Shown in pieces: positions 2,254 to 38,970 of a stretch of DNA of 64,000 nt (its first letter is position 1; every line of letters begins with the position of its first letter). This stretch comes from a bacterium. Its GTDB lineage: Bacteria; Sysuimicrobiota; Sysuimicrobiia; Sysuimicrobiales; Kaftiobacteriaceae. The stretch lies in assembly GCA_036004445.1 (NCBI GenBank), contig DASYRL010000067.1, positions 1,499 through 65,498 on the forward strand, read 5' to 3'. Position numbers and translations under genes: made by a program. The notes beneath the pieces are model-generated. The model was not told the origin of the DNA. It did no database searches and worked only from the letters and a program-made list of their open reading frames with translations.

Positions 2254-3644
2254 GGCGCAGGATCGTCATCGATTCCTGTGATGTCCTCGTGACCATGGAC
2301 GATGCGGGGACCGAGATCGCCGGCGGCTCGCTCCTTGTCGAAGACGGTGTCATTGCATGGGTCGGCCATGGCAGCGTTCCGAACGCGGAAGGCGCCGAGG
2401 TCGTCAATGGGCGCGGCACGGTGGCGACCCCGGGATTGATCAACAGTCATCACCATCTCTACCAATCGATGACGCGCGTGTACGCCCAGGAACAGGGGTT
2501 GTTCGGCTGGCTGCGACGGCTCTACCCGGTGTGGACCGGTCTGGACTTGGATTGGATGCGCGCCGCCGCCGGAGTGGGGTTGGCCGAACTGGCGCTGTCC
2601 GGCTGCTCGACAACGACCGATCATCACTACATCTTCCCCAGCGGCATGACCGGAATTCTTGAGGCAGAGGTCGACGTCGCCCGGGCGATCGGTCTACGGT
2701 TTCATCCGTGCCGCGGCTCGATGGATCTCGGGGCATCGTCCGGCGGCCTGCCTCCGGACGAGATCGTCGAAGACCTCGACGCGATTCTTTCCCACACCGA
2801 GGCGGCCGTGCACCGGCTCCACGATCCCGGTCCGGGATCGATGCTGCGAGTGGCCGTCGCACCCTGTTCACCGTTTTCGGCCACGCCCCGGCTCATGCGT
2901 GAATCGGCGACCCTGGCGCGGCGGCTCGGCGTGCGACTGCACACGCACATCGCCGAAACCGCGGACGAGGCGCAGTACTGCGTTCAGACGTTCGGCCGCC
3001 GACCGCTGGAACTGCTCGAGGATCTGGAATGGCTGGGGTCCGACGTCTGGCTGGCCCACTGCGTCCACCTCAACGACGACGACGTGCGCCGCATCGCACA
3101 GACAGGTACCGCGGTGGCCTGGTGCCCCTCGTCGAACCTGCGCCTGGGATCGGGCATCGCGCCGGCCCGGGCGCTGTTGGACGCGGGCGCGGCAGTCGGG
3201 CTGGCGGTCGACGGATCCGCGTCCAACGATACCGGGCACATGCTGGCGGAAGTGCGGCAGGCGATGCTGGCTGTCCGCGCGCAGGGCCCGGACGGCATAA
3301 CGGCGCGCGGCGCGCTGAGAGTTGCCACGCGGGGCAGCGCGCGCTGCCTGGGGTGGGATGACATCGGCGCTCTCGAGGTTGGGAAACGCGGCGACGTCGC
3401 GCTCTTCCGTGTTGATGGGCTGGCCTTCGCCGGGGCAGACGCCGACCCGGTCGCTGCGCTCATCTTCTGCACTCCCCAGCGCGTACACGATCTCTTCGTC
3501 GAAGGACGCGCAGTCGTGCGAGAGGGCCGACTGGTCAACGTCGACGAGCAGGCCCTCGCCGCCGACGGCCACCGCGTCGGCCGCCGCATTGCCAGGTTTG
3601 GCGAGTCACGAGTCACGAGTCACGAGTTACGAGGATCGGCATGA
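2247..3644 (+). CDS. amidohydrolase, guanine/8-oxoguanine deaminase-like
   Basis: 465 aa. PGLINSHHHLYQS metal-binding start, HTHIAET and AVDGSASND blocks, typical of the COG0402 deaminase group. Confidence 0.8.
   Translation: MVRRRIVIDSCDVLVTMDDAGTEIAGGSLLVEDGVIAWVGHGSVPNAEGAEVVNGRGTVATPGLINSHHHLYQSMTRVYAQEQGLFGWLRRLYPVWTGLDLDWMRAAAGVGLAELALSGCSTTTDHHYIFPSGMTGILEAEVDVARAIGLRFHPCRGSMDLGASSGGLPPDEIVEDLDAILSHTEAAVHRLHDPGPGSMLRVAVAPCSPFSATPRLMRESATLARRLGVRLHTHIAETADEAQYCVQTFGRRPLELLEDLEWLGSDVWLAHCVHLNDDDVRRIAQTGTAVAWCPSSNLRLGSGIAPARALLDAGAAVGLAVDGSASNDTGHMLAEVRQAMLAVRAQGPDGITARGALRVATRGSARCLGWDDIGALEVGKRGDVALFRVDGLAFAGADADPVAALIFCTPQRVHDLFVEGRAVVREGRLVNVDEQALAADGHRVGRRIARFGESRVTSHELRGSA
3603..3634 (+). 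repeat. tandem heptamer GAGTCAC x4.5 at gene 3' end
   Basis: GAGTCAC GAGTCAC GAGTCAC GAGTTAC GAGG. It encodes ESRVTSHELRGS. The terminal GAGG lies 6 nt before ATG 3641 of the next gene. Confidence 0.85.
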
Positions 3645-11244: not shown

Positions 11245-11358
11245 CTACGCGCTCTTCTTCTCAGCGTGGGCTTCCTTGTTGTGTTTGTCGAGTTCCTCCT
11301 TGGTCTTGAACTCCATGTTGCACTGAGGGCAACTCAGTGAGGTCGTCTTCGGTTCCAT
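11245..11358 (-). CDS. possible independently translated C2H2 zinc-finger mini-protein (37 aa), in frame with the oxidoreductase
   Basis: MEPKTTSLSCPQCNMEFKTKEELDKHNKEAHAEKKSA. Internal ATG 11358 is preceded by AAGGAGGTG with a 5-nt spacer. Confidence 0.4.
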   Translation of the reverse strand: MEPKTTSLSCPQCNMEFKTKEELDKHNKEAHAEKKSA

Positions 11359-12768
11359 GGCCCACCTCCTTTCTCCGATCTTCTCCGGTGCGATGTTCCG
11401 GAGGAGTGCGCGTGCCGTGCCCTCCACGCCCTCCTGCAGCGTCGGGAAGATGCCCACGGCTGTGGCTAGGTCGTCGATGGTCCCGCGACGGCGCATTACG
11501 ACGATGGCGTCGTAGATGAGATTGGCCGCATCCGGTCCCACGATGTGACAGCCTAGGATCCGCCGCGTGCGGCGCTCGGCGACGAACTTGATGACGCCTG
11601 CGGTTTCGCCAATCAGACGGGCCATTGAGACCTGGGAAAACTCCACCGTCCCGGTGACGACGTCGTGCCCGGCCTCGCGGGCCTCTGGCTCGGTCAGACC
11701 GACGCTGCCGACCTGCGGGTCGGTAAAGATCGCGTGCCCCAGCGGGGCCCGGTCGACGCGCCGACCCGCGCCCTGAAACGCGTTGCCAAAGGCGATCTTG
11801 CCTTCTTCCTGGCAGATGCGCGTGAACGGCTGTTTTCCGTTCACGTCGCCGATCGCCCAGATGCCCCGCGCAGTGGTCTCCAGGAAGTCATCCACGACGA
11901 CATAACCGGCCTCGTCGGTCCGGACGCCTGCCGCGGCCAGATTCAGCATCTCGGTATTCGGGATCCGGCCCGCAGCGGCCAGGAGGTGTGAGCCGGTGAC
12001 GGCCAGCTCCCGTCCCCCGGCGTCTGCCGCAACAGCCGAAACGTTGCCGTGACCGTGCCTTACGCTCACCAGGTCATGGCCGAGCCTGACCGTGATGCCT
12101 TCAGCGGCGAATGCCCCCGCGATGACCTCGCTGACCGCCGGGTCCTCGCGGGCCAGGAGGCGGTCTTTGCGGTGCAGGATCGTCACGTCCGCGCCGAACC
12201 GACGGAACGCCTGCGCCAGCTCGCATCCGACATATCCACCGCCCACGACGATGAGGTGTTCGGGAACCTCCTGCAGTTCCATGATGGTCTCATTGGTCAG
12301 GACCAACTGCGGATCCAGCCCAGGAAGATCGGGCATCCGCGGCCGCAGTCCGGTGGCGACGAAGATCGCCTCAGCGGTCAGCATCCGGTCGCCAATGGCG
12401 ACCGTTCGCGGGCCGGTAAAGCGCGCGCTGCCCTCGAACAGGATCAGCCCTTCGGCCTCGCGCGCGTGGCCGAAGGCCTCCTCACGATGGTCCTCCACCA
12501 GAGCGCGTTTCTCGCCGATGATGGCTTTGAGGTCGACCGACGTGTCCCAGGTCCGGACATGGTAGCGGGCCGCCGTCCGGCACAGATGCGCGATCCGTGC
12601 CCGGTGGATGAGGAACTTGCTGGGCACACAGCCGGTATTGATGCATGTACTGCCGTACGGGCGCTTGTAGATCAGGGCAACCCGTTTGCCCGCGTCCAGC
12701 GCCAGGCCCGCGACAACGGTCCCAGCCTCACCCGCACCGATGACGATAGCGTCGAAATTCGCGTCCAC
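11245..12768 (-). CDS. FAD-dependent pyridine nucleotide-disulfide oxidoreductase (dihydrolipoyl dehydrogenase/mercuric reductase-like) with in-frame C2H2 zinc-finger tail
   Basis: 507 aa. GAGEAG FAD motif, redox disulfide CINTGCVPSK, dimerisation domain. The last 37 aa form a C2H2 finger. Confidence 0.85.
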   Translation of the reverse strand: MDANFDAIVIGAGEAGTVVAGLALDAGKRVALIYKRPYGSTCINTGCVPSKFLIHRARIAHLCRTAARYHVRTWDTSVDLKAIIGEKRALVEDHREEAFGHAREAEGLILFEGSARFTGPRTVAIGDRMLTAEAIFVATGLRPRMPDLPGLDPQLVLTNETIMELQEVPEHLIVVGGGYVGCELAQAFRRFGADVTILHRKDRLLAREDPAVSEVIAGAFAAEGITVRLGHDLVSVRHGHGNVSAVAADAGGRELAVTGSHLLAAAGRIPNTEMLNLAAAGVRTDEAGYVVVDDFLETTARGIWAIGDVNGKQPFTRICQEEGKIAFGNAFQGAGRRVDRAPLGHAIFTDPQVGSVGLTEPEAREAGHDVVTGTVEFSQVSMARLIGETAGVIKFVAERRTRRILGCHIVGPDAANLIYDAIVVMRRRGTIDDLATAVGIFPTLQEGVEGTARALLRNIAPEKIGERRWAMEPKTTSLSCPQCNMEFKTKEELDKHNKEAHAEKKSA

Positions 12769-12884
12769 ACGACAGATTTACCCTCTGGCCGGCCGGCAAG
12801 TGTGAGCTGTCTTACATCGTCGCGCCACGCGGTCTCGTATTGTAACCTGGAAGCGACCACGGAAGCGGCCAAGGACATCTCTTC

Positions 12885-13565
12885 ATGCCACCCATCCTCG
12901 TGTTCGATGTGAATGAAACCTTGCTGGATCTGGCGGCTTTCGACGCGTCCTTCGATCAGTACTTCGGCGATGTCGCGGTGCGGCACGAATGGTTTGATCA
13001 GATGCTGCTCATTGCCTTTACCACCGCGATCACCGGGCCTTACGCCGACTTCGGGACGATCGGCAGAGCCGCCCTGGGAGTCGTGGAACGACGGTACCAT
13101 CGATCGCTTTCCGATGAGGAACGCTCGCAAATCCTGGGGACGATTCGTCGGCTTGCTCCCCACCCTGATGTGGAAGGGGGCCTCCGTCGGCTGCAGCAAG
13201 GTGGGCTGCGGATGGTGACCCTGACGAACTCGACGGCCCAGGTGGCCGAGGCGCAACTTGCCCACGCAGGCTTGAGCCACTACTTTGAGCGGGTCTTCTC
13301 AGCCGACTCAGTCCGCAGCCTCAAGCCCTCTTCCGTACCTTACCGGATGGTCGCCGAGAAGATGAGCGTGGACATCGGCTCGCTGCTCCTCGTCGCCGCG
13401 CATGCCTGGGATATCGTCGGGGCGATCAGCGCCGGATGCAGGGCGGCGTTCATCGAGCGGCCGGGGCGGTTTCTCGACGCGCTGACTCCAAGGCCCGACT
13501 ATGCTGCGGCGAACCTGGAACTGCTTGCGGATCAGATCCTGCGCCAGGAGCGGCTGGATAGGTAA
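12885..13565 (+). CDS. haloacid dehalogenase type II (HAD superfamily)
   Basis: 226 aa. Nucleophile motif VFDVNETLLDL and C-terminal AAHAWD block. Confidence 0.8.
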   Translation: MPPILVFDVNETLLDLAAFDASFDQYFGDVAVRHEWFDQMLLIAFTTAITGPYADFGTIGRAALGVVERRYHRSLSDEERSQILGTIRRLAPHPDVEGGLRRLQQGGLRMVTLTNSTAQVAEAQLAHAGLSHYFERVFSADSVRSLKPSSVPYRMVAEKMSVDIGSLLLVAAHAWDIVGAISAGCRAAFIERPGRFLDALTPRPDYAAANLELLADQILRQERLDR

Positions 13566-13586
13566 GTGCTCCGTGCCGCGCCGAGC

Positions 13587-15188
<1,602 letters not shown>

Positions 15189-15196
15189 CCCTCCCT

Positions 15197-15901
15197 TCAG
15201 CCGAAGGCCGCCCGGTACTCTCTCACCGCCTTGGGGCCGTTCCGCTCCAGCGCCGCATAGAAAGCCTCGCGGTCCTGGTGGCGGAAATCCATCCGCTCGA
15301 CGTGGAATGGCGCGAGACGCTCACCCCCTCGGCGCCGGTCCACGACATTGAGGAAGTACTCGACGGCGTTGACGATGCTGGCTGGATCCGTCCAGTCGGA
15401 TTTGTACACGGGCACACCGGAGGCGGCGAAGATCCAGCTCATATTTGGCATGGAGCCGTATGCGCGATGGCAGGCGCCGTCCAGCGCATCGACGAGAATC
15501 GGACGCGTGACGCCGAGCCGGTCGCGCAACGCGCGCGCGTGCCGCAGCTTCTGTGCCATCGAGGTGTGGTGGGGGTAGAATTCGCCCGGATGCGCTTCGT
15601 GCGTGTAGAGGAAGACCGAGCCAACGCCTTGAGGAGCGACCCGCTGCGCGATCCCGTTCATGGATGGCGCCGCCATCCCGCAGTAGGGTCAGGTGAAGCT
15701 CCCAAATTCGACGATCGTGTACGTGTGCTGCGCCCAGATGGCAGACAGGCGCGTCTCGGCGCCGTCTAGGCCCCAGAGCGGGAAATCGGGGGCGGGCTGC
15801 CCGAGCGGCGGGCTTGCGGAGAAATTCAACCAGGGGCCGAACTTCTCAGGAATGAATTCATCGTAGTTGTAGCGGACCAGCAGGGCCGAATCGTTCACCA
15901 C
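15197..15901 (-). CDS. iodothyronine deiodinase-like thioredoxin-fold protein, candidate selenoprotein (in-frame TGA at 15689-15691)
   Basis: ORFs 15689..15901 and 15197..15676 share a frame. Read-through gives APDFPLWG...VEFGSFT-U-PYCG...LYTHEAHPGEF...HRAYGSMPN, 234 aa. Confidence 0.75.
15662..15678 (-). promoter_or_regulatory. candidate bacterial SECIS hairpin
   Basis: RNA GGAUGGC-GGC-GCCAUCC (7 bp, GGC loop) starts 10 nt after the UGA. Confidence 0.55.
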
Positions 15902-15942
15902 AGCCCCTCGCTCCAGGGAAGGATCCGAGATCTCTGCCGCCG

Positions 15943-16098
15943 CTAGTGACTGCCTTCGTGCGCGTCCTTGAGGACGTCTTCCCGCGTAATGTCCCTGCCG
16001 TGCTCTTTCTTCATGTGCTCCTGGGCCTTGCGGACGAGCTCGTCATCCGAATCGGCATGAACCGTATGGCCCATGGCGCACGCCCAATGTCTGTGCAT
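15943..16098 (-). CDS. DUF1059-like small protein
   Basis: MHRHWACAMGHTVHADSDDELVRKAQEHMKKEHGRDITREDVLKDAHEGSH. Start chosen at ATG 16098, preceded by GGAGGTG with a 5-nt spacer. ORF track gives 15943..16170. Confidence 0.55.
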   Translation of the reverse strand: MHRHWACAMGHTVHADSDDELVRKAQEHMKKEHGRDITREDVLKDAHEGSH

Positions 16099-16657
16099 CT
16101 GACCACCTCCATCCGAGAATACGCGTACCATCGTATTGTTGCCGAGCTCGCCGGCCGGCGACTGTAACACGGCTTACACTTTTTGAACCTGGCCGCCGGC
16201 GGCTGAGGCCTTCACCAGGTAACGCGGCCCCACATCTCTATGACCGCCTTCGACGTTCGAGCTGCCCGGCGCTGCCCTTGCGATCAGCTTCTTCTGGCGG
16301 GCGTGGTCGGAGGCCTGCTCGCCACCATGTTCGCCGGGTACGTCTTCTTCCGAAGGTAAGCGCGCTGACAGCCGGCACGGCCCGTCGCGGGGACAATGGT
16401 GTCCGAATCACGGTGGAAGGAGGCGACGGCATGCCCGATCGCGTCCGACCAGGCATTCGCGCCGCGCGTGGGGCTGGTGCATGTGCCCAAGCTGGAGAAG
16501 GCTAGCGGGGATGATCCGGAGAGGCTGTCGTGCTGTGTGGAGTGACAGGAGTGAGAGGCGATACGCGTGCATAGTCGCTGCGATTGCTCTCCTCGGCATC
16601 CTGTCCCTCGCAGCGGCCGGGCACGGCGCGTGAGGACTGGCAACACCGTAAGACCGC

Positions 16658-17260
16658 CTAGCGCGATGGCGGAGGCGAGAACCGGATCAACTCCTCCGCG
16701 AACGTCTGCATCTGCTCAAAGGTCAGCAGGCCGGCGTGCTTGCGCAGAATCCGGCCGTCCGCGGTGATGAACACCGTGGTCGGCATGCCGAGGATCTGGT
16801 ATGTGTCGGTGATGTCCTCGTCGAACACCGTCCCCGCCGGATAGCGGATGCCCAGGGTCCGGAGCAGCGCCTGTCCCTCCTCGCGGGTGCCCAATCCCGT
16901 GTAGGGCCCGACGTCGATGCTGATCAGCACGAACCGATCTCCGGCCTGGTCGGCCAGCCGCTGCAGGTCAGGCATCTCGGCGCGGCACGGCGGGCACAGG
17001 CCGGCGAAGAAGTTGACGACGACGGGCTTTCCCCGCGCCCACACCTGAGAGAGTCGAACGACGTTTCCCCCGACGGCCTCGGCGCCCTGGTACATTCGAA
17101 TCTCGATGTCCGGCGCCCGGGGGAGGGGTTGTCCGGCCGGCGCAGAGGGGGGTGGCCCCTCCGTACGCGGAGGGCCGATGAGGCGGATGACCCCGACGGC
17201 GACGAGAAAGCTGCCGGCGAGGAGCAGCAGCCAGAGAATGAGGCGACGCTGTGCGGACAT
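16658..17260 (-). CDS. TlpA/ResA-family thiol:disulfide oxidoreductase, membrane-anchored
   Basis: 200 aa. N-terminal TM helix, then a redoxin fold with FFAGLCPPCRAEMP. Confidence 0.85.
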   Translation of the reverse strand: MSAQRRLILWLLLLAGSFLVAVGVIRLIGPPRTEGPPPSAPAGQPLPRAPDIEIRMYQGAEAVGGNVVRLSQVWARGKPVVVNFFAGLCPPCRAEMPDLQRLADQAGDRFVLISIDVGPYTGLGTREEGQALLRTLGIRYPAGTVFDEDITDTYQILGMPTTVFITADGRILRKHAGLLTFEQMQTFAEELIRFSPPPSR

Positions 17261-17332
17261 GGGAAATAATTCTCCGTCGAACAGAGTATCATCAATCGAG
17301 AGGACGGTTTCAGTAAGACAGGAGACAGATCG

Positions 17333-17566
17333 ATGGCCAAGTCCGTAGTGCTCTACTCACAGCCGGGCTGACTGTTCTGCGGTAAGGTGAAGGAGTTCCT
17401 TCACCAGAAGGGTGTTGCCTTCGAGGAGAAGGACATCAGCCGCGACGATCGGGCCCTGGATGAACTGCTCGAGAAAGGGTTTCAGGCCACGCCCGTGACC
17501 GTCATCGACGGCGACGCGGTGGTAGGATTCAACAAAGCCAAGCTCGAGGAGCTGCTGGGCCGGTAG
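17333..17566 (+). CDS. glutaredoxin/NrdH-like protein, candidate selenoprotein (in-frame TGA at 17369-17371)
   Basis: Not in the ORF track. MAKSVVLYSQPG-U-LFCGKVKEFLHQKGVAFEEKDISRDDRALDELLEKGFQATPVTVIDGDAVVGFNKAKLEELLGR. AGGAGA lies 7 nt before the ATG. Confidence 0.8.
17386..17405 (+). promoter_or_regulatory. candidate bacterial SECIS hairpin
   Basis: Perfect 8-bp stem GGUGAAGG / CCUUCACC with loop AGUU, starting 14 nt after the UGA. Confidence 0.7.
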
Positions 17567-21302: not shown

Positions 21303-21328
21303 AAGTCCGGTGTTGCTACCGTCAGCAG

Positions 21329-23440
21329 TTGGGTCAGATGATGTCAGATCGCTTGCTGCAGGCACTCCTGCTCGCCGTGGGGCTGCTGGTCGTGGCCGCC
21401 ATCCAGCGCTGGACTGCCGTCGGCACCGGCGCGGGCGTCGCCATCCTGCTCCTGGTGATCGCTCTCATCCTGCGCGCGATCCTGAGGACCACAGCGGCGT
21501 ATGAGGCGGCGCCGGCCCGGTGGCATCCTCGCCGCTTCTCGCTCCGTCGGCTGCTGCTGGGCTCGCCGCTGCCGACGTATGAGATGCCCCAGCAGACCGT
21601 GGGCAAGTTCGTGGGGCTCGCGGTCTTCGCATCCGACGTCCTCTCGTCGGTCGCCTATTCCACCGAGGAGATCCTGATTGTCCTCGCGGTGGCGGGCACG
21701 GCGTTCTTCGGTCTGTCCATTCCCATCTCGATCGCCATCTCGCTGCTGCTTCTGGTCCTCACGATTTCGTACCGGCAGACGATCTTCGCCTATCCGGGCG
21801 GAGGCGGAGCCTACATCGTGGCGCGGGATAACCTCGGAGAAGGACCTGCGCAGACCGCCGGAGCGGCGTTGCTCACCGACTACATCCTGACGGTCTCGGT
21901 GAGCATCGCATCCGGCGTCGCGCAAATCGCGTCGGCGTTCCCGGTGCTCATCCCCTGGCGGGTGGAGCTCGCGGTTGCGGCCATCCTGTTCATGATGGTG
22001 ATCAACCTCAGGGGGGTCCGGGAATCCGGGACCATCTTTGCCATTCCAACCTACTTCTTCGTCGTGATGATGTTGGTCATGCTCGTGACCGGCTTTTATC
22101 AGCTCCTCACCGGACAGCTGGGTCAGGTCACCGGCGTCGCGCTTGAAACCACCGCCTTCCAGCCGCTGACCGTGTTCCTGGTCCTCCGCGCGTTCAGCAG
22201 CGGGGCGGTCGCCGTCACCGGCACAGAAGCGGTGAGCAACGGGATCACGGCATTCCGCGAGCCGAAGAGCAAGAACGCCGCGGCCACGATGGCCTGGATG
22301 AGCGTGCTCATCGGCACCATGTTCGTGGGAACAACGGTGCTCGCTAACCGCGCCCACGCGGTGCCGGTGGAGCAGGAAACGATCATTTCCGAGCTCGCTC
22401 GGACCATCTATGGGACCGGCTACCTGCACGTCATCACTCTGGTTGCGACGACGATCATCCTTGTCCTCGCTGCGAACACGGCGTTCGCGGATTTCCCGCG
22501 GCTGGCCGCGCTCCATGCGGGGGACGGCTTCCTACCGCGCCAGCTCACCTACCGGGGCAGCCGGCTCGTGTTCTCCTGGGGTATCGTGGGCCTGGCGATC
22601 ATCGCGTCGCTGCTGGTCGTCCTGTTCCAGGCCAACGTCTCCCGCCTTATCCCGCTGTACGCGATCGGCGTCTTCCTCTCGTTTACGATGTCGCAGACCG
22701 GGATGGTCCTGCGCTGGCGAAAGGTCGGCCGCCTCGCCCCGGGCGAGGAGATCCAGACCAAAGGGTCGATTCTCCGCTTCGATCCCCGTTGGCGGTTCAA
22801 GCAGGCGCTCAACGCCTTCGGCGCGGTGCTGACCTCGGCGGTCATCGTGGTCCTCGCGGTCACCAAGTTCGCGCAGGGGGCCTGGATCATCATCATCCTG
22901 ATCCCGACGCTGGTCGGGATTTTCTTCCGCATCCACCGGCACTATCAGGACGTGCGCCGGCGGCTGAGCGTCAGCGGAGTCGCGGAGCCTCCGCCGACCG
23001 TACCCGTCATCAACCTCGTGCTCATTTCAGACGTCCATGCCGCGGCGCTGCGGCAGGTCCAATTCGTCCGGTCGCTGGGATTCCGCTGGACGGCGGTGCA
23101 CGTTGCCATCGACGAGGAGAAGGCGGCGGAGGTCAAGCACAAGTGGGACCGGTTTTTCCCGGACGACGAACTGGTCATCCTGGCGTCCCCGCTGCGGGAT
23201 CTCGTGGGGCCAATCCGGACGTACGTCGAGCGGCTGCGACTGACCCATCCCCGGGCGTTCATTCACGTCATTGTGGCCCAGATCCTCATGGACAACATGG
23301 TCGAGCAGGTCTTGCATCAGAACACCACGGTGATCTTCAAGCTGGCCCTGCAGGAGATCCCGATGGTCGCCGTCACGGACGTTGCATTTCCCCTCTATCC
23401 CGAGCCTCCGCAAGGCGTCGTCGACGTCGAGCACCTTTAG
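21329..23440 (+). CDS. kimA: KimA-type K+/H+ symporter (APC superfamily) with N-terminal extension
   Basis: 703 aa. VFASDVLSSVAYSTEEIL, YPGGGGAYIVARDNLG, LRAFSSGAVAVTGTEAVSNG, and a C-terminal cytosolic domain (ILASPLRDLVGP) as in B. subtilis KimA. Confidence 0.8.
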   Translation: MGQMMSDRLLQALLLAVGLLVVAAIQRWTAVGTGAGVAILLLVIALILRAILRTTAAYEAAPARWHPRRFSLRRLLLGSPLPTYEMPQQTVGKFVGLAVFASDVLSSVAYSTEEILIVLAVAGTAFFGLSIPISIAISLLLLVLTISYRQTIFAYPGGGGAYIVARDNLGEGPAQTAGAALLTDYILTVSVSIASGVAQIASAFPVLIPWRVELAVAAILFMMVINLRGVRESGTIFAIPTYFFVVMMLVMLVTGFYQLLTGQLGQVTGVALETTAFQPLTVFLVLRAFSSGAVAVTGTEAVSNGITAFREPKSKNAAATMAWMSVLIGTMFVGTTVLANRAHAVPVEQETIISELARTIYGTGYLHVITLVATTIILVLAANTAFADFPRLAALHAGDGFLPRQLTYRGSRLVFSWGIVGLAIIASLLVVLFQANVSRLIPLYAIGVFLSFTMSQTGMVLRWRKVGRLAPGEEIQTKGSILRFDPRWRFKQALNAFGAVLTSAVIVVLAVTKFAQGAWIIIILIPTLVGIFFRIHRHYQDVRRRLSVSGVAEPPPTVPVINLVLISDVHAAALRQVQFVRSLGFRWTAVHVAIDEEKAAEVKHKWDRFFPDDELVILASPLRDLVGPIRTYVERLRLTHPRAFIHVIVAQILMDNMVEQVLHQNTTVIFKLALQEIPMVAVTDVAFPLYPEPPQGVVDVEHL

Positions 23441-23479
23441 GTATTTCTAAGGCGTCCGTCTTGTGCCAGACTGGACCCC

Positions 23480-25537
23480 GTGGCACTGAATGTCGTGAAG
23501 CGTGCGCTGATCGGGCCGCCGCTGCCGACGGCCCGGCTGGCGCACGAACGTCTCAACAAGATCCAAGGCCTCGCCGTCTTCTCCTCGGACAACCTGTCGT
23601 CGTCGGCGTACGCTACCGAGGAGATCCTGCTGGCCCTGACGGTCGCCGGGTCGGCGGCGCTGACGCTGGCCTGGCCGATCGCGCTGGCGATCGCGGCGGT
23701 CTTCGCGATCGTCGGGTTCTCCTACTATCAGACGATCCATGCTTATCCGTCGGGGGGCGGCGCCTACATCGTCGCCCGCAGCAACCTCGGCATCTGGCCG
23801 GGGCTCATCGCGGCGGCGGCGCTGCTCATTGACTACATCCTCACGGTTTCCGTCAGCATTGCCGCGGGGGTGGCCGCGATTACCTCCGCTGCGCCGGAGC
23901 TGTTCCCGCACCGCATCACGATCGCGCTGGCCGCCGTCGCCCTGATCGCGCTGATCAACCTGCGGGGAGTGCGCGAGTCGGGGACGATCTTCAGCGTTCC
24001 GACCTACTTCTTTGTCGTGATGATGTTCGTCATGCTCGGCCTGGGGCTGCTTCGGAGCTGGGGGAGCCCGGCGGTAGCTCCGCAGGCGGCCGCCGACGCA
24101 GGGGCGGCGTTGCAGCCGCTGACGTTGTTGCTGCTGCTGCGGGCATTTGCGTCGGGGTCGGCGGCGATGACGGGCGTCGAGGCGATCAGCAACGGCGTGC
24201 AGGCGTTCCGCCCGCCGGAGTCTCGCAACGCCGGGGTGACGCTGATCTGGATGGTGGCCCTCCTCAGCGCGATGTTTCTCGGCATCACCTACCTGGCGCG
24301 CCATTACGGGTTGGTCCCGGTCGAACATGAGACCATCGTGTCGCAGCTGGCGCGGCAGGTATTCGGGTCAGGCAGCCCCGCGTACTACATGATGCAGGCC
24401 GGGACTGCGATGATCCTGATCCTGGCCGCGAACACCAGTTTCGCCGACTTCCCGCGTCTGTCGTCGATCCTCGCCCGCGACCGCTTCCTCCCCCACCAGT
24501 TGATGAACCTGGGGGATCGCCTAGTGTTCGCCAACGGGATCCTCGTGCTGGGCCTGCTGTCGGGGCTGCTGCTGTACGTGTTTTCGGCGAGCACCCACGC
24601 GCTGATCCCGCTCTACGCGGTGGGGGTCTTCCTGTCGTTTACGCTGTCCCAAAGCGGCATGGTCAAGAAGTGGTGGACGGAGCGGGGCAGAGGCTGGCAG
24701 CGCAGCATCGTGTTCAACGCGGTCGGCGCCGTCACGACCGCGTTGATCCTCGTCGTGGTGACGGTCGCGAAGTTCTCCCACGGCGCCTGGATCATCATGC
24801 TGCTGGTTCCGAGCTTCGTGTGGTTCATGCGGAGCATCTACCTGTACTACGAGAACGTCCGCACCCAGCTCTCTCTCGCCGGGGCGAGGACCACCCAGGC
24901 GCACCTGCAGCACAAAGTGGTCATCCCCGTCGGGGGCATTCACAAAGGCGTCCTGCCGGCGCTGCGCTATGCGAAGTCCATCAGTGATGACGTCACCGCG
25001 GTGATGATCGACATCAATGGCGCCGAGACCGCCGACGTGGTCGCGAAGTGGTCCCAGTGGAGCCTCGGTGTGCCGCTCACGGTCCTGTCATCCCCGTACC
25101 GGTCCGTGATCAGGCCGTTCCTGCAGTACCTGGACGAGCTGGAATGGGACGTGGGGTTCGACCAGCAGCTCACGGTGATCCTCCCTGAGTTCGTGCCGGC
25201 GCGCTTGTGGAATTTCCTCCTGCACAACCAGACCTCGTTTCTGTTGAAGGCGGCCCTGTTCTTCCGGCGCCGGCCGGGCACGCTCGTGACGGTCGTCACC
25301 GACGTACCCTACTATCTGCAGGAGCCCTCCGTCGACGGCCGCGAGCCGGGAACGGTCCCGCGCTTCAGTCGCAGGATGGTCGCCGTGCTGGCGGCGTGCG
25401 TGACCATGATTCTGCTCTTTGCTCTATCGGTCATCGTGCCGTGGCCGGCGCTGTTGCAGGGAGTCTTCGGGTCCGCCGCTCTTCTCTCGTTGGTGGTGCT
25501 TGCGGCCCTGGCGTTTGTCCGCTCAGTCTACCGGTAG
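23480..25537 (+). CDS. kimA: KimA-type K+/H+ symporter, paralog 2
   Basis: 685 aa. RALIGPPLPT...VFSSDNLSSSAYATEEIL, YPSGGGAYIVARSNLG, IPLYAVGVFLSFTLSQSGMVKKWW, LSSPYRSVIRPF. Collinear with KimA as recalled from memory. Confidence 0.85.
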   Translation: MALNVVKRALIGPPLPTARLAHERLNKIQGLAVFSSDNLSSSAYATEEILLALTVAGSAALTLAWPIALAIAAVFAIVGFSYYQTIHAYPSGGGAYIVARSNLGIWPGLIAAAALLIDYILTVSVSIAAGVAAITSAAPELFPHRITIALAAVALIALINLRGVRESGTIFSVPTYFFVVMMFVMLGLGLLRSWGSPAVAPQAAADAGAALQPLTLLLLLRAFASGSAAMTGVEAISNGVQAFRPPESRNAGVTLIWMVALLSAMFLGITYLARHYGLVPVEHETIVSQLARQVFGSGSPAYYMMQAGTAMILILAANTSFADFPRLSSILARDRFLPHQLMNLGDRLVFANGILVLGLLSGLLLYVFSASTHALIPLYAVGVFLSFTLSQSGMVKKWWTERGRGWQRSIVFNAVGAVTTALILVVVTVAKFSHGAWIIMLLVPSFVWFMRSIYLYYENVRTQLSLAGARTTQAHLQHKVVIPVGGIHKGVLPALRYAKSISDDVTAVMIDINGAETADVVAKWSQWSLGVPLTVLSSPYRSVIRPFLQYLDELEWDVGFDQQLTVILPEFVPARLWNFLLHNQTSFLLKAALFFRRRPGTLVTVVTDVPYYLQEPSVDGREPGTVPRFSRRMVAVLAACVTMILLFALSVIVPWPALLQGVFGSAALLSLVVLAALAFVRSVYR

Positions 25538-25546
25538 CAGGATGTT

Positions 25547-26491
25547 ATGCTGGATGGGATGGCCGCCCCACGCCAACCCGCCGTATCACCCGCGACCGCG
25601 GGCGAGTTCGATCTACTGCAGGAGATGGCCCGCACGATTGTCCAGGCGGCCGACCTGCTCGCCGAGACGCTGAACGGCAAGACGCCCGTCGCGCGCGCAT
25701 GGCCGGAGATCCGCGACCTCGAGCACAAGGGCGACGCTATCGCCCGCGACCTGTTCGAGCTGCTGCTGACGCCGCGCACCACCCAACCCGACGTTGACTC
25801 GCTGCGGGCGCTGACCGGCTACCTCGACGACGTCCTCGACGGCATCGAAGCCGCGGCCGCCCGGCTGGCCATCTACCGGATCCGCCGGGCCATCGCGCCG
25901 GCGAAGGCCATGGGCCAGGTGGTGCGGGACTCCGCCCGCGAGCTGGCCGCCGCGCTCGACAGCCTCCGCCAGATGCGGGACGTATTTCCCCACACGCGGA
26001 CGCTGCACCGGCTGGAGAATCGCGGGGATGATCTCCTGCGCGAGGCGATCGAGCGGTTGTTCGCCGGACGGGCGTCGCCGAAGGATCTGCTGAAGTGGAA
26101 GGACGTTTTCGAGCTGCTGGAGAGTGCGACCGACCGCTGCGAGGACATCGCCAACGTCCTGGAGACCATCGTCGTGGCGGCGGGCGTGGAAGACCGTCTC
26201 GTCGCCGGCCGTCTGGTGATGGACGTCGGCCGCCACGAAGTGGTGGTCGACGGAACCCCCATTCCGCTGTCGGCCAAGGAGTACGCGCTGCTCCACCTCC
26301 TGCTCCGGCACCAGGGAAAAGTGGTCAGGCGAGAGCGGCTGCTTGCCGACGTTTGGGGTGAGGATTACTTCGGTGATTCACGAACGCTGGATACGCACCT
26401 GGGCTGGCTGCGCAAGAAAGTGGAACGCCGCGGTGGCGTCCGCATCGTGTCGGTGCGCGGCGTCGGATATCGTCTCGACCTCCTGCAATAG
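25547..26491 (+). CDS. PhoU-like DUF47 domain fused to OmpR/PhoB-type winged-helix DNA-binding domain
   Basis: 314 aa. N-terminal ~210 aa: IRDLEHKGDAIARDLF...LDDVLDGIE...LENRGDDLLREA...KDVFELLESATDRCEDIANV (DUF47/PhoU_div pattern). C-terminal ~95 aa: LSAKEYALLHLLLRHQGKVVRRERLLADVWG...RTLDTHLGWLRKK...VRGVGYRL. Confidence 0.8.
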   Translation: MLDGMAAPRQPAVSPATAGEFDLLQEMARTIVQAADLLAETLNGKTPVARAWPEIRDLEHKGDAIARDLFELLLTPRTTQPDVDSLRALTGYLDDVLDGIEAAAARLAIYRIRRAIAPAKAMGQVVRDSARELAAALDSLRQMRDVFPHTRTLHRLENRGDDLLREAIERLFAGRASPKDLLKWKDVFELLESATDRCEDIANVLETIVVAAGVEDRLVAGRLVMDVGRHEVVVDGTPIPLSAKEYALLHLLLRHQGKVVRRERLLADVWGEDYFGDSRTLDTHLGWLRKKVERRGGVRIVSVRGVGYRLDLLQ

Positions 26492-33310: not shown

Positions 33311-33350
33311 TTTCCCCTACGTGTTAGGATAGAAGCGACAACTACAGACG

Positions 33351-33487
33351 ACCTTCGGGGCAGGGTGCGCCCGTTCGACGTAGCTCAGGGCAATTCCCGA
33401 CCGGCGGTACAGCCCGCTACCCGCCGATTGCGGCGGTGGATCCGGTGTGATTCCGGGGCCGACGGTATAGTCCGGATGGGAGAAGGT
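33351..33487 (+). promoter_or_regulatory. FMN riboswitch (RFN element) aptamer
   Basis: P1 ACCTTC (33351-56) / GAAGGT (33482-87). Conserved CTTCGGGGCAGGGTG, ATTCCCGACCGGCGGTA, AGCCCG, GGTGGAT, GCCGACGGTATAGTCCGGATGGGAGAAGG blocks. Upstream of ribU. Confidence 0.85.
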
Positions 33488-33497
33488 CAAACTTCAC

Positions 33498-33527: not shown

Positions 33528-33581
33528 GAGACCGGATGCGTGTTTCTGCCCCGAAGTCGACTTACGAGGTGAGGGGCAGAA

Positions 33582-34130
33582 ATGAGACGGCTCACGCAGG
33601 TTGCACTGCTTGGCGCGGTCGCCTTTGCGTTCATGTACTTCGAATTTCCACTGCCGGGGTTTCCGCCGTACCTGAAGTACGACCCGAGTGAAGTTCCCGC
33701 CCTGATCGCGGCGTTTGCCCTTGGCCCCGCATACGGAGTAGCGGTGGAAGCCATCAAGGCCGTGCTGATCGGCGTGTTCCGCTCGGCCCCCTTGGGCGGG
33801 CCATTTGGGATCTTCATGAATTTTCTCGCCGGCGTCACCCTTGCCGGCGTGGCCGGAGCGTACTATCTGTTCGAGCGCACGAAAGCCGGCGCGATCAAAT
33901 CCCTGATCATCGGCGTGCTGGCGATGTCCGGCGTCATGATCGTCGCCAACATCGCATTGACGCCGGTCTTCTTTGGCATACCGCGCCCGCAGGTCATCGC
34001 CCTGGTCCTCCCGGCACTCCTGCCGTTTAATCTGCTCAAGGGCGCCATCAGTTCTGTGGCGACCTTCTTCGTCTACAAGCGGGTGCGGGCGTATCTCTAC
34101 GAGCGTATTACGGATAGAGCCGCGTGGTGA
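33582..34130 (+). CDS. ribU: ECF transporter S component, riboflavin transporter RibU-like
   Basis: 182 aa. FEFPLPGFPPYLKYDPSEVPALIAAFALGP motif. Directly downstream of the FMN riboswitch. Confidence 0.8.
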   Translation: MRRLTQVALLGAVAFAFMYFEFPLPGFPPYLKYDPSEVPALIAAFALGPAYGVAVEAIKAVLIGVFRSAPLGGPFGIFMNFLAGVTLAGVAGAYYLFERTKAGAIKSLIIGVLAMSGVMIVANIALTPVFFGIPRPQVIALVLPALLPFNLLKGAISSVATFFVYKRVRAYLYERITDRAAW

Positions 34131-38031: not shown

Positions 38032-38087
38032 GTGACTCGTGACTGGTGACTGGCCAGAACCGAGTCGAGTCACGAGTCACGAGTCAC
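38032..38087. terminator. long hairpin built from inverted GAGTCAC heptamer repeats between convergent genes
   Basis: GTGACTC GTGACTG GTGACTG (38032-52), loop, then GAGTC GAGTCAC GAGTCAC GAGTCAC (38062-87). The arms are largely complementary. Confidence 0.6.
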
Positions 38088-38264
38088 CCGGTCCTCTCGA
38101 ACGAAGTAGTCTGCCTTCCTATAGGTTCCTCGCTCGCCGCAGTGGGGGCACGTATGGTAGTTCGCTGCCAGCGTCCCCTTCTCGAAACTCCGCCGGTCCA
38201 ATCGGAGCGGAGTCTCAAACTCTCGTGCGCATGCTTTGCACGCAACCGTAAGACGCAGTTTCAT
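38070..38264 (-). CDS. small zinc-ribbon protein (hypothetical)
   Basis: 64 aa. CKAC...CPHC pairs. The C-terminal VTRDS is encoded by the heptamer repeat. Confidence 0.45.
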   Translation of the reverse strand: MKLRLTVACKACAREFETPLRLDRRSFEKGTLAANYHTCPHCGERGTYRKADYFVREDRVTRDS

Positions 38265-38283
38265 GGGTTATAGTAATCGTAGC

Positions 38284-38970
38284 ATGGCGTTTTTGAACCC
38301 GCAGGACGCCGAGTTCATCCGCAGGCGGTTCGCCTCCGAGCTGAAAGGCGACGTTACGCTGGAGTTTTTCGCTCCGAGCGCAGGGGGCCTCGTGCTGCCC
38401 GGACAGGACGGGGAGACGGCGGAGTACACGCGCAGGATCCTTGAAGAAGTGGCCGGCCTCTCCGACCGGGTCCGCCTCACCGTACACAGCGTCGTGACGG
38501 AGCCGGAGGTCGTCCGGCGGTTTGGGATCGAGCGCACGCCGGCCATCGCGTTTGTCGGTGCGGAAGATTATGGAATCCGATACTACGGGATTCCCGGCGG
38601 GTACGAGTTCGCCACCCTGCTGGAACTGATCATTGCCGTCTCGGTGGGCCGGGCCGACATCGCCGAGTCCTCAAAGGACGCGCTTGCCCGGCTGAAGGAG
38701 AGCGCGCACATTCAAGTCTTCGTCACGCCGACCTGACCGCACTGTCCGCGCCCGGCCAGGCTGGCCGGCCTGCTGGCCATCGAGAGCGCGAAGGTCAGCG
38801 CGGACATCGTCGAGGCCAGCGAGTTCCCCGAGCTCGCGGAGCGATACGCCGTCTATGCGGTTCCGAAGATTGTCATCAACGACGACACCGAGTTCGTCGG
38901 CGCCCAGCCGGAAGCCCACTTCGTCGCCTACGTGGCCAACGCGGCCGGTGTCGAAGAACCGGCCGGATAG
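38284..38970 (+). CDS. glutaredoxin-like/protein disulfide oxidoreductase (PDO, two Trx-fold units), candidate selenoprotein (in-frame TGA at 38734-38736)
   Basis: ORF 38236..38736 continues in frame: ...HIQVFVTPT-U-PHCPRPARLAGLLAIESAKVSADIVEASEFPELAERYAVYAVPKIVINDDTEFVGAQPE...*. TAG at 38968-38970. Start at ATG 38284 is tentative. Confidence 0.75.
38752..38768 (+). promoter_or_regulatory. candidate bacterial SECIS hairpin
   Basis: CCGGCC-AGGCU-GGCCGG (6 bp, loop with GG), starting 15 nt after the UGA. Confidence 0.55.

Follow-up and report, generated by a model that had tools for sequence, protein, structure and literature searches.

The subject of this analysis is a stretch of 64,000 nucleotides (GenBank assembly GCA_036004445.1, contig DASYRL010000067.1, positions 1,499 to 65,498) from a bacterium of the phylum Sysuimicrobiota, referred to as the window, within which all positions are counted. 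It contains a gene for a protein disulfide oxidoreductase (PDO) with two thioredoxin folds, in which an in-frame UGA occupies codon 151. Judged from sequence comparison, this UGA is very probably recoded to selenocysteine (Sec) through a selenocysteine insertion sequence (SECIS) mechanism, a reading to which we assign a probability of about 0.88. The elements of the gene are listed below; L numbers denote homologous loci outside the window.

38284..38970, plus strand: complete gene for a two-thioredoxin-fold PDO, a homologue of the AhpF N-terminal domain, delimited by translation, TIGR02187.2 and Pfam matches and orthologue starts
38734..38736, plus strand: in-frame UGA, putative Sec codon U151, first position of the motif U-P-H-C; the homologous codon is TGA in L001-L020, L022, L026 and L029 and TGC in L021, L023-L025, L027, L028 and L033/L034
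38743..38745, plus strand: TGT for Cys154, the resolving cysteine and sole cysteine of the protein; an invariant column in an alignment of 48 sequences
38750..38770, plus strand: SECIS-like hairpin with 5' arm 38750-38758, GGC loop 38759-38761 and 3' arm 38762-38770

An in-frame UGA at the redox site

From ATG 38284 the frame runs through AHIQVFVTPT to the TGA at 38734-38736 and continues with PHCPRPARLAGLLAIESAKV to the TAG at 38968-38970, the codons around the TGA being GTC ACG CCG ACC TGA CCG CAC TGT (V-T-P-T-*-P-H-C). The read-through product has 150 + 1 + 77 = 228 residues. A preliminary description of this DNA had placed the TGA exactly at the first cysteine site of an FVTPTCPHC motif and had counted 77 further codons up to TAG 38968; the TGA does lie inside VFVTPT-[TGA]-PHC, and the frame behind it is open over that length. 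It had taken the 5' part of the gene as 38236..38736, as this part appears in the program's list of open reading frames (ORFs), which starts it at a TTG and holds no plus-strand ORF in the same frame after the TGA. The TGA at 38734-38736 is where it had been placed; the start at TTG 38236 is not upheld: the N-termini of the orthologues all read M-(A/P)-F-L-N, beginning at an ATG equivalent to 38284, and an extension from 38236 would run into a conserved divergent gene at 38070-38264. On this comparison the true start is ATG 38284, and TTG 38236 is dismissed.

The only cysteine of the 228-residue product is that of U-P-H-C. Because the protein lacks any other cysteine, this motif is its only possible redox centre, as had been proposed. 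The first thioredoxin unit had likewise been described as having no CxxC, and the window protein carries Gly-43 and Ala-46 at positions where at least 90% of the aligned full-length Cys-form relatives have Cys-43 and Cys-46.

Family, fold, and architecture

With U written as C, the protein scores 227 bits against the NCBIfam hidden Markov model (HMM) TIGR02187.2 ("PDO_seleno_TRX, protein disulfide oxidoreductase"), compared with a curated cut-off of 185, and the match covers residues 7-219 on profile positions 3-208 of 209. Pfam Thioredoxin_3 matches residues 142-214. Among solved structures, the closest in sequence are the PDOs of Pyrococcus horikoshii (1J08, E = 6e-36), Aquifex aeolicus (2YWM/2AYT), P. 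furiosus (1A8L), and Aeropyrum pernix (2HLS); E-values for these structures span 1e-28 to 1e-36, and the AhpF N-terminal domain ranks as more distant. In the alignment to 1J08 the UGA falls on the first cysteine of FVTPTCPYCP. The structure modelled with AlphaFold2 (AF2) was that of P0001, a natural full-length Cys form 69% identical to the window protein and standing in for it. The P0001 model, with a mean predicted local distance difference test score (pLDDT) of 92.1 and a predicted template modelling score (pTM) of 0.88, consists of two beta-alpha-beta thioredoxin units, and in Foldseek it gave TM-scores of 0.84-0.88 to 2YWM, 2AYT, and 1A8L over 221-232 columns and of 0.74-0.89 to the AhpF N-terminal domain. 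The earlier assignment to the PDO/TIGR02187 family is thus borne out by the HMM, by sequence matches to solved structures, and by the fold.

Residue conservation was read from an alignment of 48 sequences, comprising the window protein and 47 full-length Cys-form relatives, in which the columns of Phe-146, Val-147, Thr-148, Pro-149, Cys-151, Pro-152, and Cys-154 are invariant. Classical PDOs have two CxxC sites, one per unit. The second of these, in the N-terminal unit, which distinguishes the classical two-site archaeal PDOs, is missing from the window protein and from all clade members (L001-L020 and L029); L022 and L026 retain it. By sequence the architecture is that of the AhpF N-terminal domain, with a single redox centre in the second unit. 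Identity with AhpF itself was considered and rejected, since the score against TIGR03140 is 59 bits versus a cut-off of 502.9 and the chain ends at residue 228, with the flavoprotein domain missing. All sequence-level features of membership agree in making the gene a member of the known PDO/TIGR02187 family of UxxC selenoproteins.

Conservation of the UGA codon and of the downstream frame

A protein search returned 1998 homologues, and among the best 120 of these, 73 are exactly 150-151 residues long, are 61-99% identical to the query, and cover 66% of it. They are named "hypothetical protein" or, under a JGI label, "AhpF" (alkyl hydroperoxide reductase subunit AhpF). Most simply, these entries are read as gene-caller cuts at the UGA codon. 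In species-representative genomes, 29 loci (L001-L029) were found and translated through the site. TGA is found at the same codon in 23 other genomes with 38-82% identity, most of them from Sysuimicrobiota/CSP1-3, and the distant homologues that bear cysteine have CPYC or CPHC at the site. Sorted by codon, these loci are as follows; MAG denotes a metagenome-assembled genome.

L001-L020 and L029: TGA, 58-82% identity to the window
L022: TGA, 47% identity, motif U-P-Y-C
L026: TGA, 38% identity, Dehalococcoidia MAG, motif U-G-F-C
L021, L023-L025, L027, and L028: TGC (Cys), from Anaerolineae, Caldilineae, Chloroflexia, and Methanoperedens

Selection on the downstream part was assessed in 22 Sec-form sequences by comparing the 66 codons 3' of the UGA with the 66 codons 5' of it. 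In the downstream codons, pairs of sequences differ on average by 0.18 at codon position 1, 0.145 at position 2, and 0.446 at position 3, and 57% of the differing codons are synonymous. No stop occurs in frame in this part of the 22 sequences, compared with 19 and 14 in the other two frames. Purifying selection 3' of the UGA is at least as strong as 5' of it. A genuine stop at this position in orthologues, which the preliminary description had named as grounds against its reading, is not what they show: in them the TGA is retained and followed by a conserved, selected continuation of 75-80 codons. The sole in-frame ATG, GTG, or TTG 3' of the UGA is GTG 38932, which lies 12 codons before the end; because there is no usable internal start, the C-terminal unit can be made only by decoding the UGA.

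These results bear on the alternative that the TGA is a true stop, in which case the gene would encode only a 150-residue protein with a single thioredoxin fold and no cysteine, and the 231 nt downstream would be a remnant or a separate gene. Such products are what NCBI and JGI annotations and the gene callers give, as "hypothetical protein" or "AhpF", and TGA works as a normal stop elsewhere in the window. Set against this are the open downstream frame, on which purifying selection acts in 22 genomes with the same strength as on the upstream part; the lack of any in-frame start before 38932 from which the downstream part could be translated alone; the completion of the domain by this part, with both the HMM match and the fold spanning the TGA; and the alignment of the TGA with the catalytic cysteine of homologues. 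We consider a true stop very improbable. An assembly or sequencing error has still less to recommend it, as the identical TGA recurs in independent assemblies from many studies.

A SECIS-like hairpin downstream of the UGA

In bacterial SECIS elements of the Escherichia coli fdhF type, as captured by the bSECISearch consensus, a hairpin stands just 3' of the UGA and its apical loop, 16-37 nt downstream, contains a G. A hairpin had been proposed 15 nt 3' of the present UGA, and its parts are found as CCGGCC at 38752-57, AGGCU at 38758-62, and GGCCGG at 38763-68. It contains seven consecutive pairs (38752-58 with 38762-68), starts 15-16 nt 3' of the UGA, and has a stem of 7-9 bp. The window hairpin resembles the fdhF type in its position, in its GG-containing apical loop, which begins 22 nt after the UGA, and in its stem length. 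It differs in its very small loop, a GGC closed by A-U; no Rfam model matches the hairpin, and the SelB site is putative.

From the UGA onward the alignment of the 24 Sec-form sequences is free of gaps, and the core GGCC-A-GGN-U-GGCC is present in 24/24, flanked by two to four extra pairs. Between alignment columns 17-25 and 29-37, 91.7% of cells are paired, a share that falls to 24-50% on sliding the 3' partner by one to three columns. Two-sided changes occur at pair 18-36 (CG in nine sequences, GC in eight, UA in one, UG in one) and at pair 19-35 (GC in 19, CG in four), and the covariation score was matched by 0/500 shuffles. The C-G form of pair 19-35 is found in the window and in L001-L003, where the peptide reads PRPARLAG, as against PRAARLAA elsewhere, so that the compensatory swap altered two amino acids together. 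Over 100 codons (-40 to +59), third positions shared by all 24 sequences are confined to six: the A of the UGA and those of codons +6 to +10, the codons of the hairpin core. At Arg +8 the codon used is AGG in 24/24, although it accounts for about 5% of arginine codons in the window genes.

The hairpin is missing from six Cys forms of other lineages, and in L026, the Dehalococcoidia homologue, the stem requires a bulged U. Of the 1554 TGA trinucleotides of the window (both strands, any frame), only 4 are followed at 14-30 nt by a perfectly paired stem of 7 bp or more that closes a GG loop, and two of these four sites are its two in-frame UxxC TGAs, the present one and that of the gene described in the next section. 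The SECIS-like hairpin is thus conserved and covarying, and by these comparative data it is beyond chance.

Three homologues show the site in other combinations. P0001 (L033 599-1300 and L034 299-1000), a clade member found on contigs of two sequencing runs, has TGC at the site together with the intact hairpin gcgcggcc-aggct-ggccgcgc. By its sequence it seems to have passed recently from Sec to Cys, with the hairpin left as a fossil SECIS. L022 (TGA at 3448) and L026 (TGA at 3454) keep the CxxC of the N-terminal unit and have the same GGCC-AGGNU-GGCC hairpin core, and these distant Sec forms suggest that the Sec form either arose once, long ago, or was transferred from one phylum to another.

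A second candidate selenoprotein gene and the case for Sec decoding

The other in-frame UxxC TGA of the window belongs to a second candidate selenoprotein gene, which is listed together with three genes in its redox-rich surroundings (11245-17356).

15197..15901, minus strand: second candidate selenoprotein gene, a peroxiredoxin (Prx)-/deiodinase-like thiol oxidoreductase, with TGA 15691-15689 and hairpin 15678-15662
11245-12777, minus strand: class-I pyridine-nucleotide disulfide oxidoreductase with dimerisation domain
13983-15188, plus strand: DUF3179 protein
16658-17260, minus strand: membrane-anchored TlpA/ResA-like thioredoxin with CPPC

The second gene starts at GTG 15901, stops at 15199-15197, and reads YTIVEFGSFT-U-PYCGMAAPS, with Redoxin, AhpC-TSA, and T4_deiodinase matches that all span the TGA. 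Its hairpin, GGAUGGC-GGC-GCCAUCC, lies 10 nt 3' of the UGA and has the same GGC loop as that of the PDO gene. A metagenome scan for this gene returned 80 loci with 67-81% identity; the TGA is present in 80/80 and the hairpin is recurrent, with the compensatory stem variants GGCUGGC/GCCGGCC, GGUUGGC/GCCAGCC, and CGAUGGC/GCCAUCG. The gene corresponds to a catalogued UxxC selenoprotein type, described as "deiodinase-like" or "Prx-like thiol:disulfide oxidoreductase" (PMC9312934). At the level of sequence, it lends good indirect support to Sec decoding in the host genome. From such evidence we infer that the host is able to decode Sec.

Of the 55 coding-like frames in the window, about 20 terminate in TGA at sensible lengths, among them the second candidate selenoprotein gene. 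This argues against a reassignment of TGA to Trp or Gly, as does the fact that only two in-frame TGAs occur in the window, each at the first cysteine of a CxxC motif. All in-frame TGAs other than 38734 and 15691 that a relaxed scan returned were rejected as antisense, Arg-rich artefacts without a hairpin. UGA reassignment exists in some uncultured bacteria, and we found nothing that speaks specifically for it here, for generic stop read-through, or for the assembly or sequencing error considered above; together these explanations can be given scarcely any weight.

The main rival of Sec insertion is recoding to cysteine. In this case the UGA and its hairpin would be read by a SelB-dependent tRNA(ReC)- or SelC*-type tRNA, either constitutively or at selenium scarcity, and the product would be a plain CPHC protein. 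A passage in a 2026 survey (PMC13582414), citing Vargas-Rodriguez et al. 2018, has tRNA(ReC) reading UGA as cysteine given a SECIS. The same survey places tRNA(ReC) beside canonical selC in several MAG lineages, and the natural TGC variant with an intact hairpin, P0001, indicates that cysteine is functionally tolerated at the site. However, no tRNA(ReC)-type tRNA turned up in either the window or the fetched loci, and the lineages of the survey belong to GTDB Armatimonadota, which is not demonstrably the phylum of the window. A constant Cys product is also hard to reconcile with the retention in 24 genomes of a UGA that is one step from UGC, and with the second UxxC gene keeping its TGA in 80/80 loci. 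Cysteine recoding is thus unlikely, and Sec insertion is preferred.

Several observations weigh against Sec insertion. Neither the 64 kb of the window nor the 114 fetched loci yielded selA, selB, selD, or tRNA-Sec, in a search that covers only the window and the locus flanks and so does not establish that they are missing from the genome. It was made with ARAGORN, with tblastn using E. coli SelD, and with regular expressions for the SelA pyridoxal-phosphate-lysine motif and the SelB/EF-type G1 motif. An Rfam search at gathering thresholds and a permissive scan of 38650-38900 returned no SECIS or other credible RNA family over the hairpin. Folding energy did not differ significantly from that of shuffled sequences (z = -1.2 for 76 nt and +0.25 for 42 nt); GC-rich RNA folds well anyway, and the comparative evidence was relied on instead. 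Since the hairpin overlaps conserved coding sequence (A-A-R-L-A), its conservation is partly imposed by the peptide. The evidence on the fold comes from the model of P0001, a Cys-form relative with 69% identity, and not from the window protein. Finally, the string "selen*" does not occur in PMC11604079 or PMC11962464, both of which deal with Sysuimicrobiota/CSP1-3.

Proposed mechanism

In Sec insertion as proposed here, the hairpin just 3' of the UGA, with its apical GGC, GGA, or GGU loop, would recruit SelB-GTP-Sec-tRNA(Sec), and Sec would be inserted in place of termination; both SelB binding and the actual incorporation of selenium are presumed. The product would be a free-standing, cytoplasmic thiol/selenol-disulfide oxidoreductase of 228 residues with two thioredoxin folds. 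The first fold, which has lost its CxxC, would have a structural role or would dock partners, as its counterpart in AhpF does. In the second fold, U151-P-H-C154 at the N-terminus of a helix would cycle between the selenolate/thiol and the selenenylsulfide. By analogy with the PDO systems of archaea, Aquifex, and Thermotoga, we infer that the reductant would be an NAD(P)H-dependent flavoprotein of the thioredoxin-reductase type and that the electrons would go on to peroxiredoxins or protein disulfides. Sec has a higher nucleophilicity and a lower pKa than cysteine, which would make up for the lost second site.

Comparison with known systems

The family has a place in published lists of UxxC selenoproteins, where it is ranked "predicted with high confidence" (PMC13188914, PMC9312934), and "seleno" is part of the NCBIfam model name. 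It was reported in 2006 from Carboxydothermus hydrogenoformans (ABB15282.1) and Symbiobacterium thermophilum (PMC1794560) and later from Asgard archaea (PMC13188914). The window gene shares with the known seleno-PDOs the HMM family, a UxxC motif with Sec in the first position, and the predicted redox function. It differs from them in its host, which belongs to Sysuimicrobiota/CSP1-3-like MAGs, a lineage that goes unmentioned in these papers, and in the loss from its clade of the N-unit CxxC, which leaves the putative Sec-Cys pair as the sole redox centre. With the PDOs of hyperthermophiles (1A8L, 1J08, 2AYT/2YWM, and 2HLS) the protein has in common two fused thioredoxin folds and the FVTPTCP(Y/H)CP motif of the C-terminal unit, with TM-scores of 0.82-0.88; these enzymes carry cysteine at the site, whereas the window protein has a predicted Sec and one redox site. 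The AhpF N-terminal domain (1HYU, 1ZYN, and 5H29) is likewise a module of two thioredoxin folds with a redox-active CxxC in the second fold only, and the JGI label "AhpF" on the cut products is due to this likeness. In AhpF, however, the module is fused to a thioredoxin-reductase-like flavoprotein in a chain of about 520 residues and uses cysteine, whereas the window protein is free-standing.

Host lineage and gene neighbourhood

The named relatives are "Armatimonadetes bacterium RBG_19FT_COMBO_69_19", further "Armatimonadota" MAGs, and three species of Candidatus Fervidifonticultor, a genus that NCBI places in the phylum Candidatus Sysuimicrobiota, formerly CSP1-3 (PMC11604079). The closest relatives, at 80-82% identity, are soil MAGs. 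Assemblies with an orthologue include those containing DASXUC010000047.1, JBIOXT010000099.1, MENB01000188.1, and JAVKIP010000016.1 (Candidatus Fervidifonticultor secundus). Two further features of the neighbourhood are listed here.

38070..38264, minus strand: zinc-ribbon-like ORF of 64 residues with CKAC...CPHC, the divergent neighbour of the PDO gene, traced by tblastn
33347-33491, plus strand: flavin mononucleotide (FMN) riboswitch, 99 bits, directly 5' of the S-component gene of an energy-coupling factor (ECF) transporter at 33573-34130 (plus strand)

The zinc-ribbon-like ORF is the sole clade-wide neighbour: 19 nt separate its start codon from that of the PDO gene, and every one of L001-L020, L029, and L033 has it upstream in divergent orientation. 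Pfam returned no match for this ORF, the product of which is possibly a partner, substrate, or regulator of the PDO. Upstream there are also an ECF-transporter component, an amidohydrolase, an Fe/Mn superoxide dismutase, an extracytoplasmic function (ECF) sigma factor, and two unassigned ORFs, one of which is weakly Metal_resist-like, below the cut-off; downstream are an ABC ATPase, an M20 peptidase, and tRNA-Leu. The block of sigma factor and superoxide dismutase is confined to the closer relatives, and the M20 peptidase is found at about half of the loci. As regards a redox partner, no thioredoxin reductase or peroxiredoxin adjoins the PDO gene.

The ECF-transporter S-component at 33573-34130 is presumably a riboflavin transporter. 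Elsewhere in the window, at 21305-26491 on the plus strand, three stop-to-stop frames (21305-23440, 23441-25537, and 25538-26491) follow each other in one frame with a single TAG between them. The first two encode paralogous proteins of about 700 residues with AA_permease_2 domains, and the three are probably tightly packed genes that share a frame by chance.

A wider reading extends these observations to all of Sysuimicrobiota/CSP1-3, an uncultured phylum of soils and hot springs that has yet to be discussed as a user of selenium. The PDO would have been remodelled phylum-wide to a single selenenylsulfide centre, with Sec gained or kept in the second unit and the CxxC lost in the first; it would always be paired with the divergent zinc-ribbon gene; the SECIS would be kept by compensatory changes that alter two amino acids; and decoding might switch between Sec and cysteine with selenium supply, in the manner of tRNA(ReC). 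We put this forward tentatively and hold it to be rather doubtful as a whole.

Significance

The general understanding of selenoproteins is unchanged by the window gene. What is new is modest and lies in the host lineage, in a CxxC that the N-terminal unit has lost throughout the clade, in the conserved zinc-ribbon neighbour, in the compensatory SECIS pair that changes amino acids, and in the scale of mis-annotation. The gene and its relatives form a natural series of Sec/Cys exchange, which comprises Sec forms, a recent Cys revertant that has the hairpin, and older Cys forms that lack it, and they offer an example of how an RNA signal may be maintained within coding sequence. Dozens of public entries are stumps of 150 residues in which the half of the protein with the active site is hidden. 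The predicted selenoprotein of the window would extend the known distribution of its family by one lineage, and the stump annotations would also be hiding evidence of selenium use by abundant bacteria of soils and hot springs.

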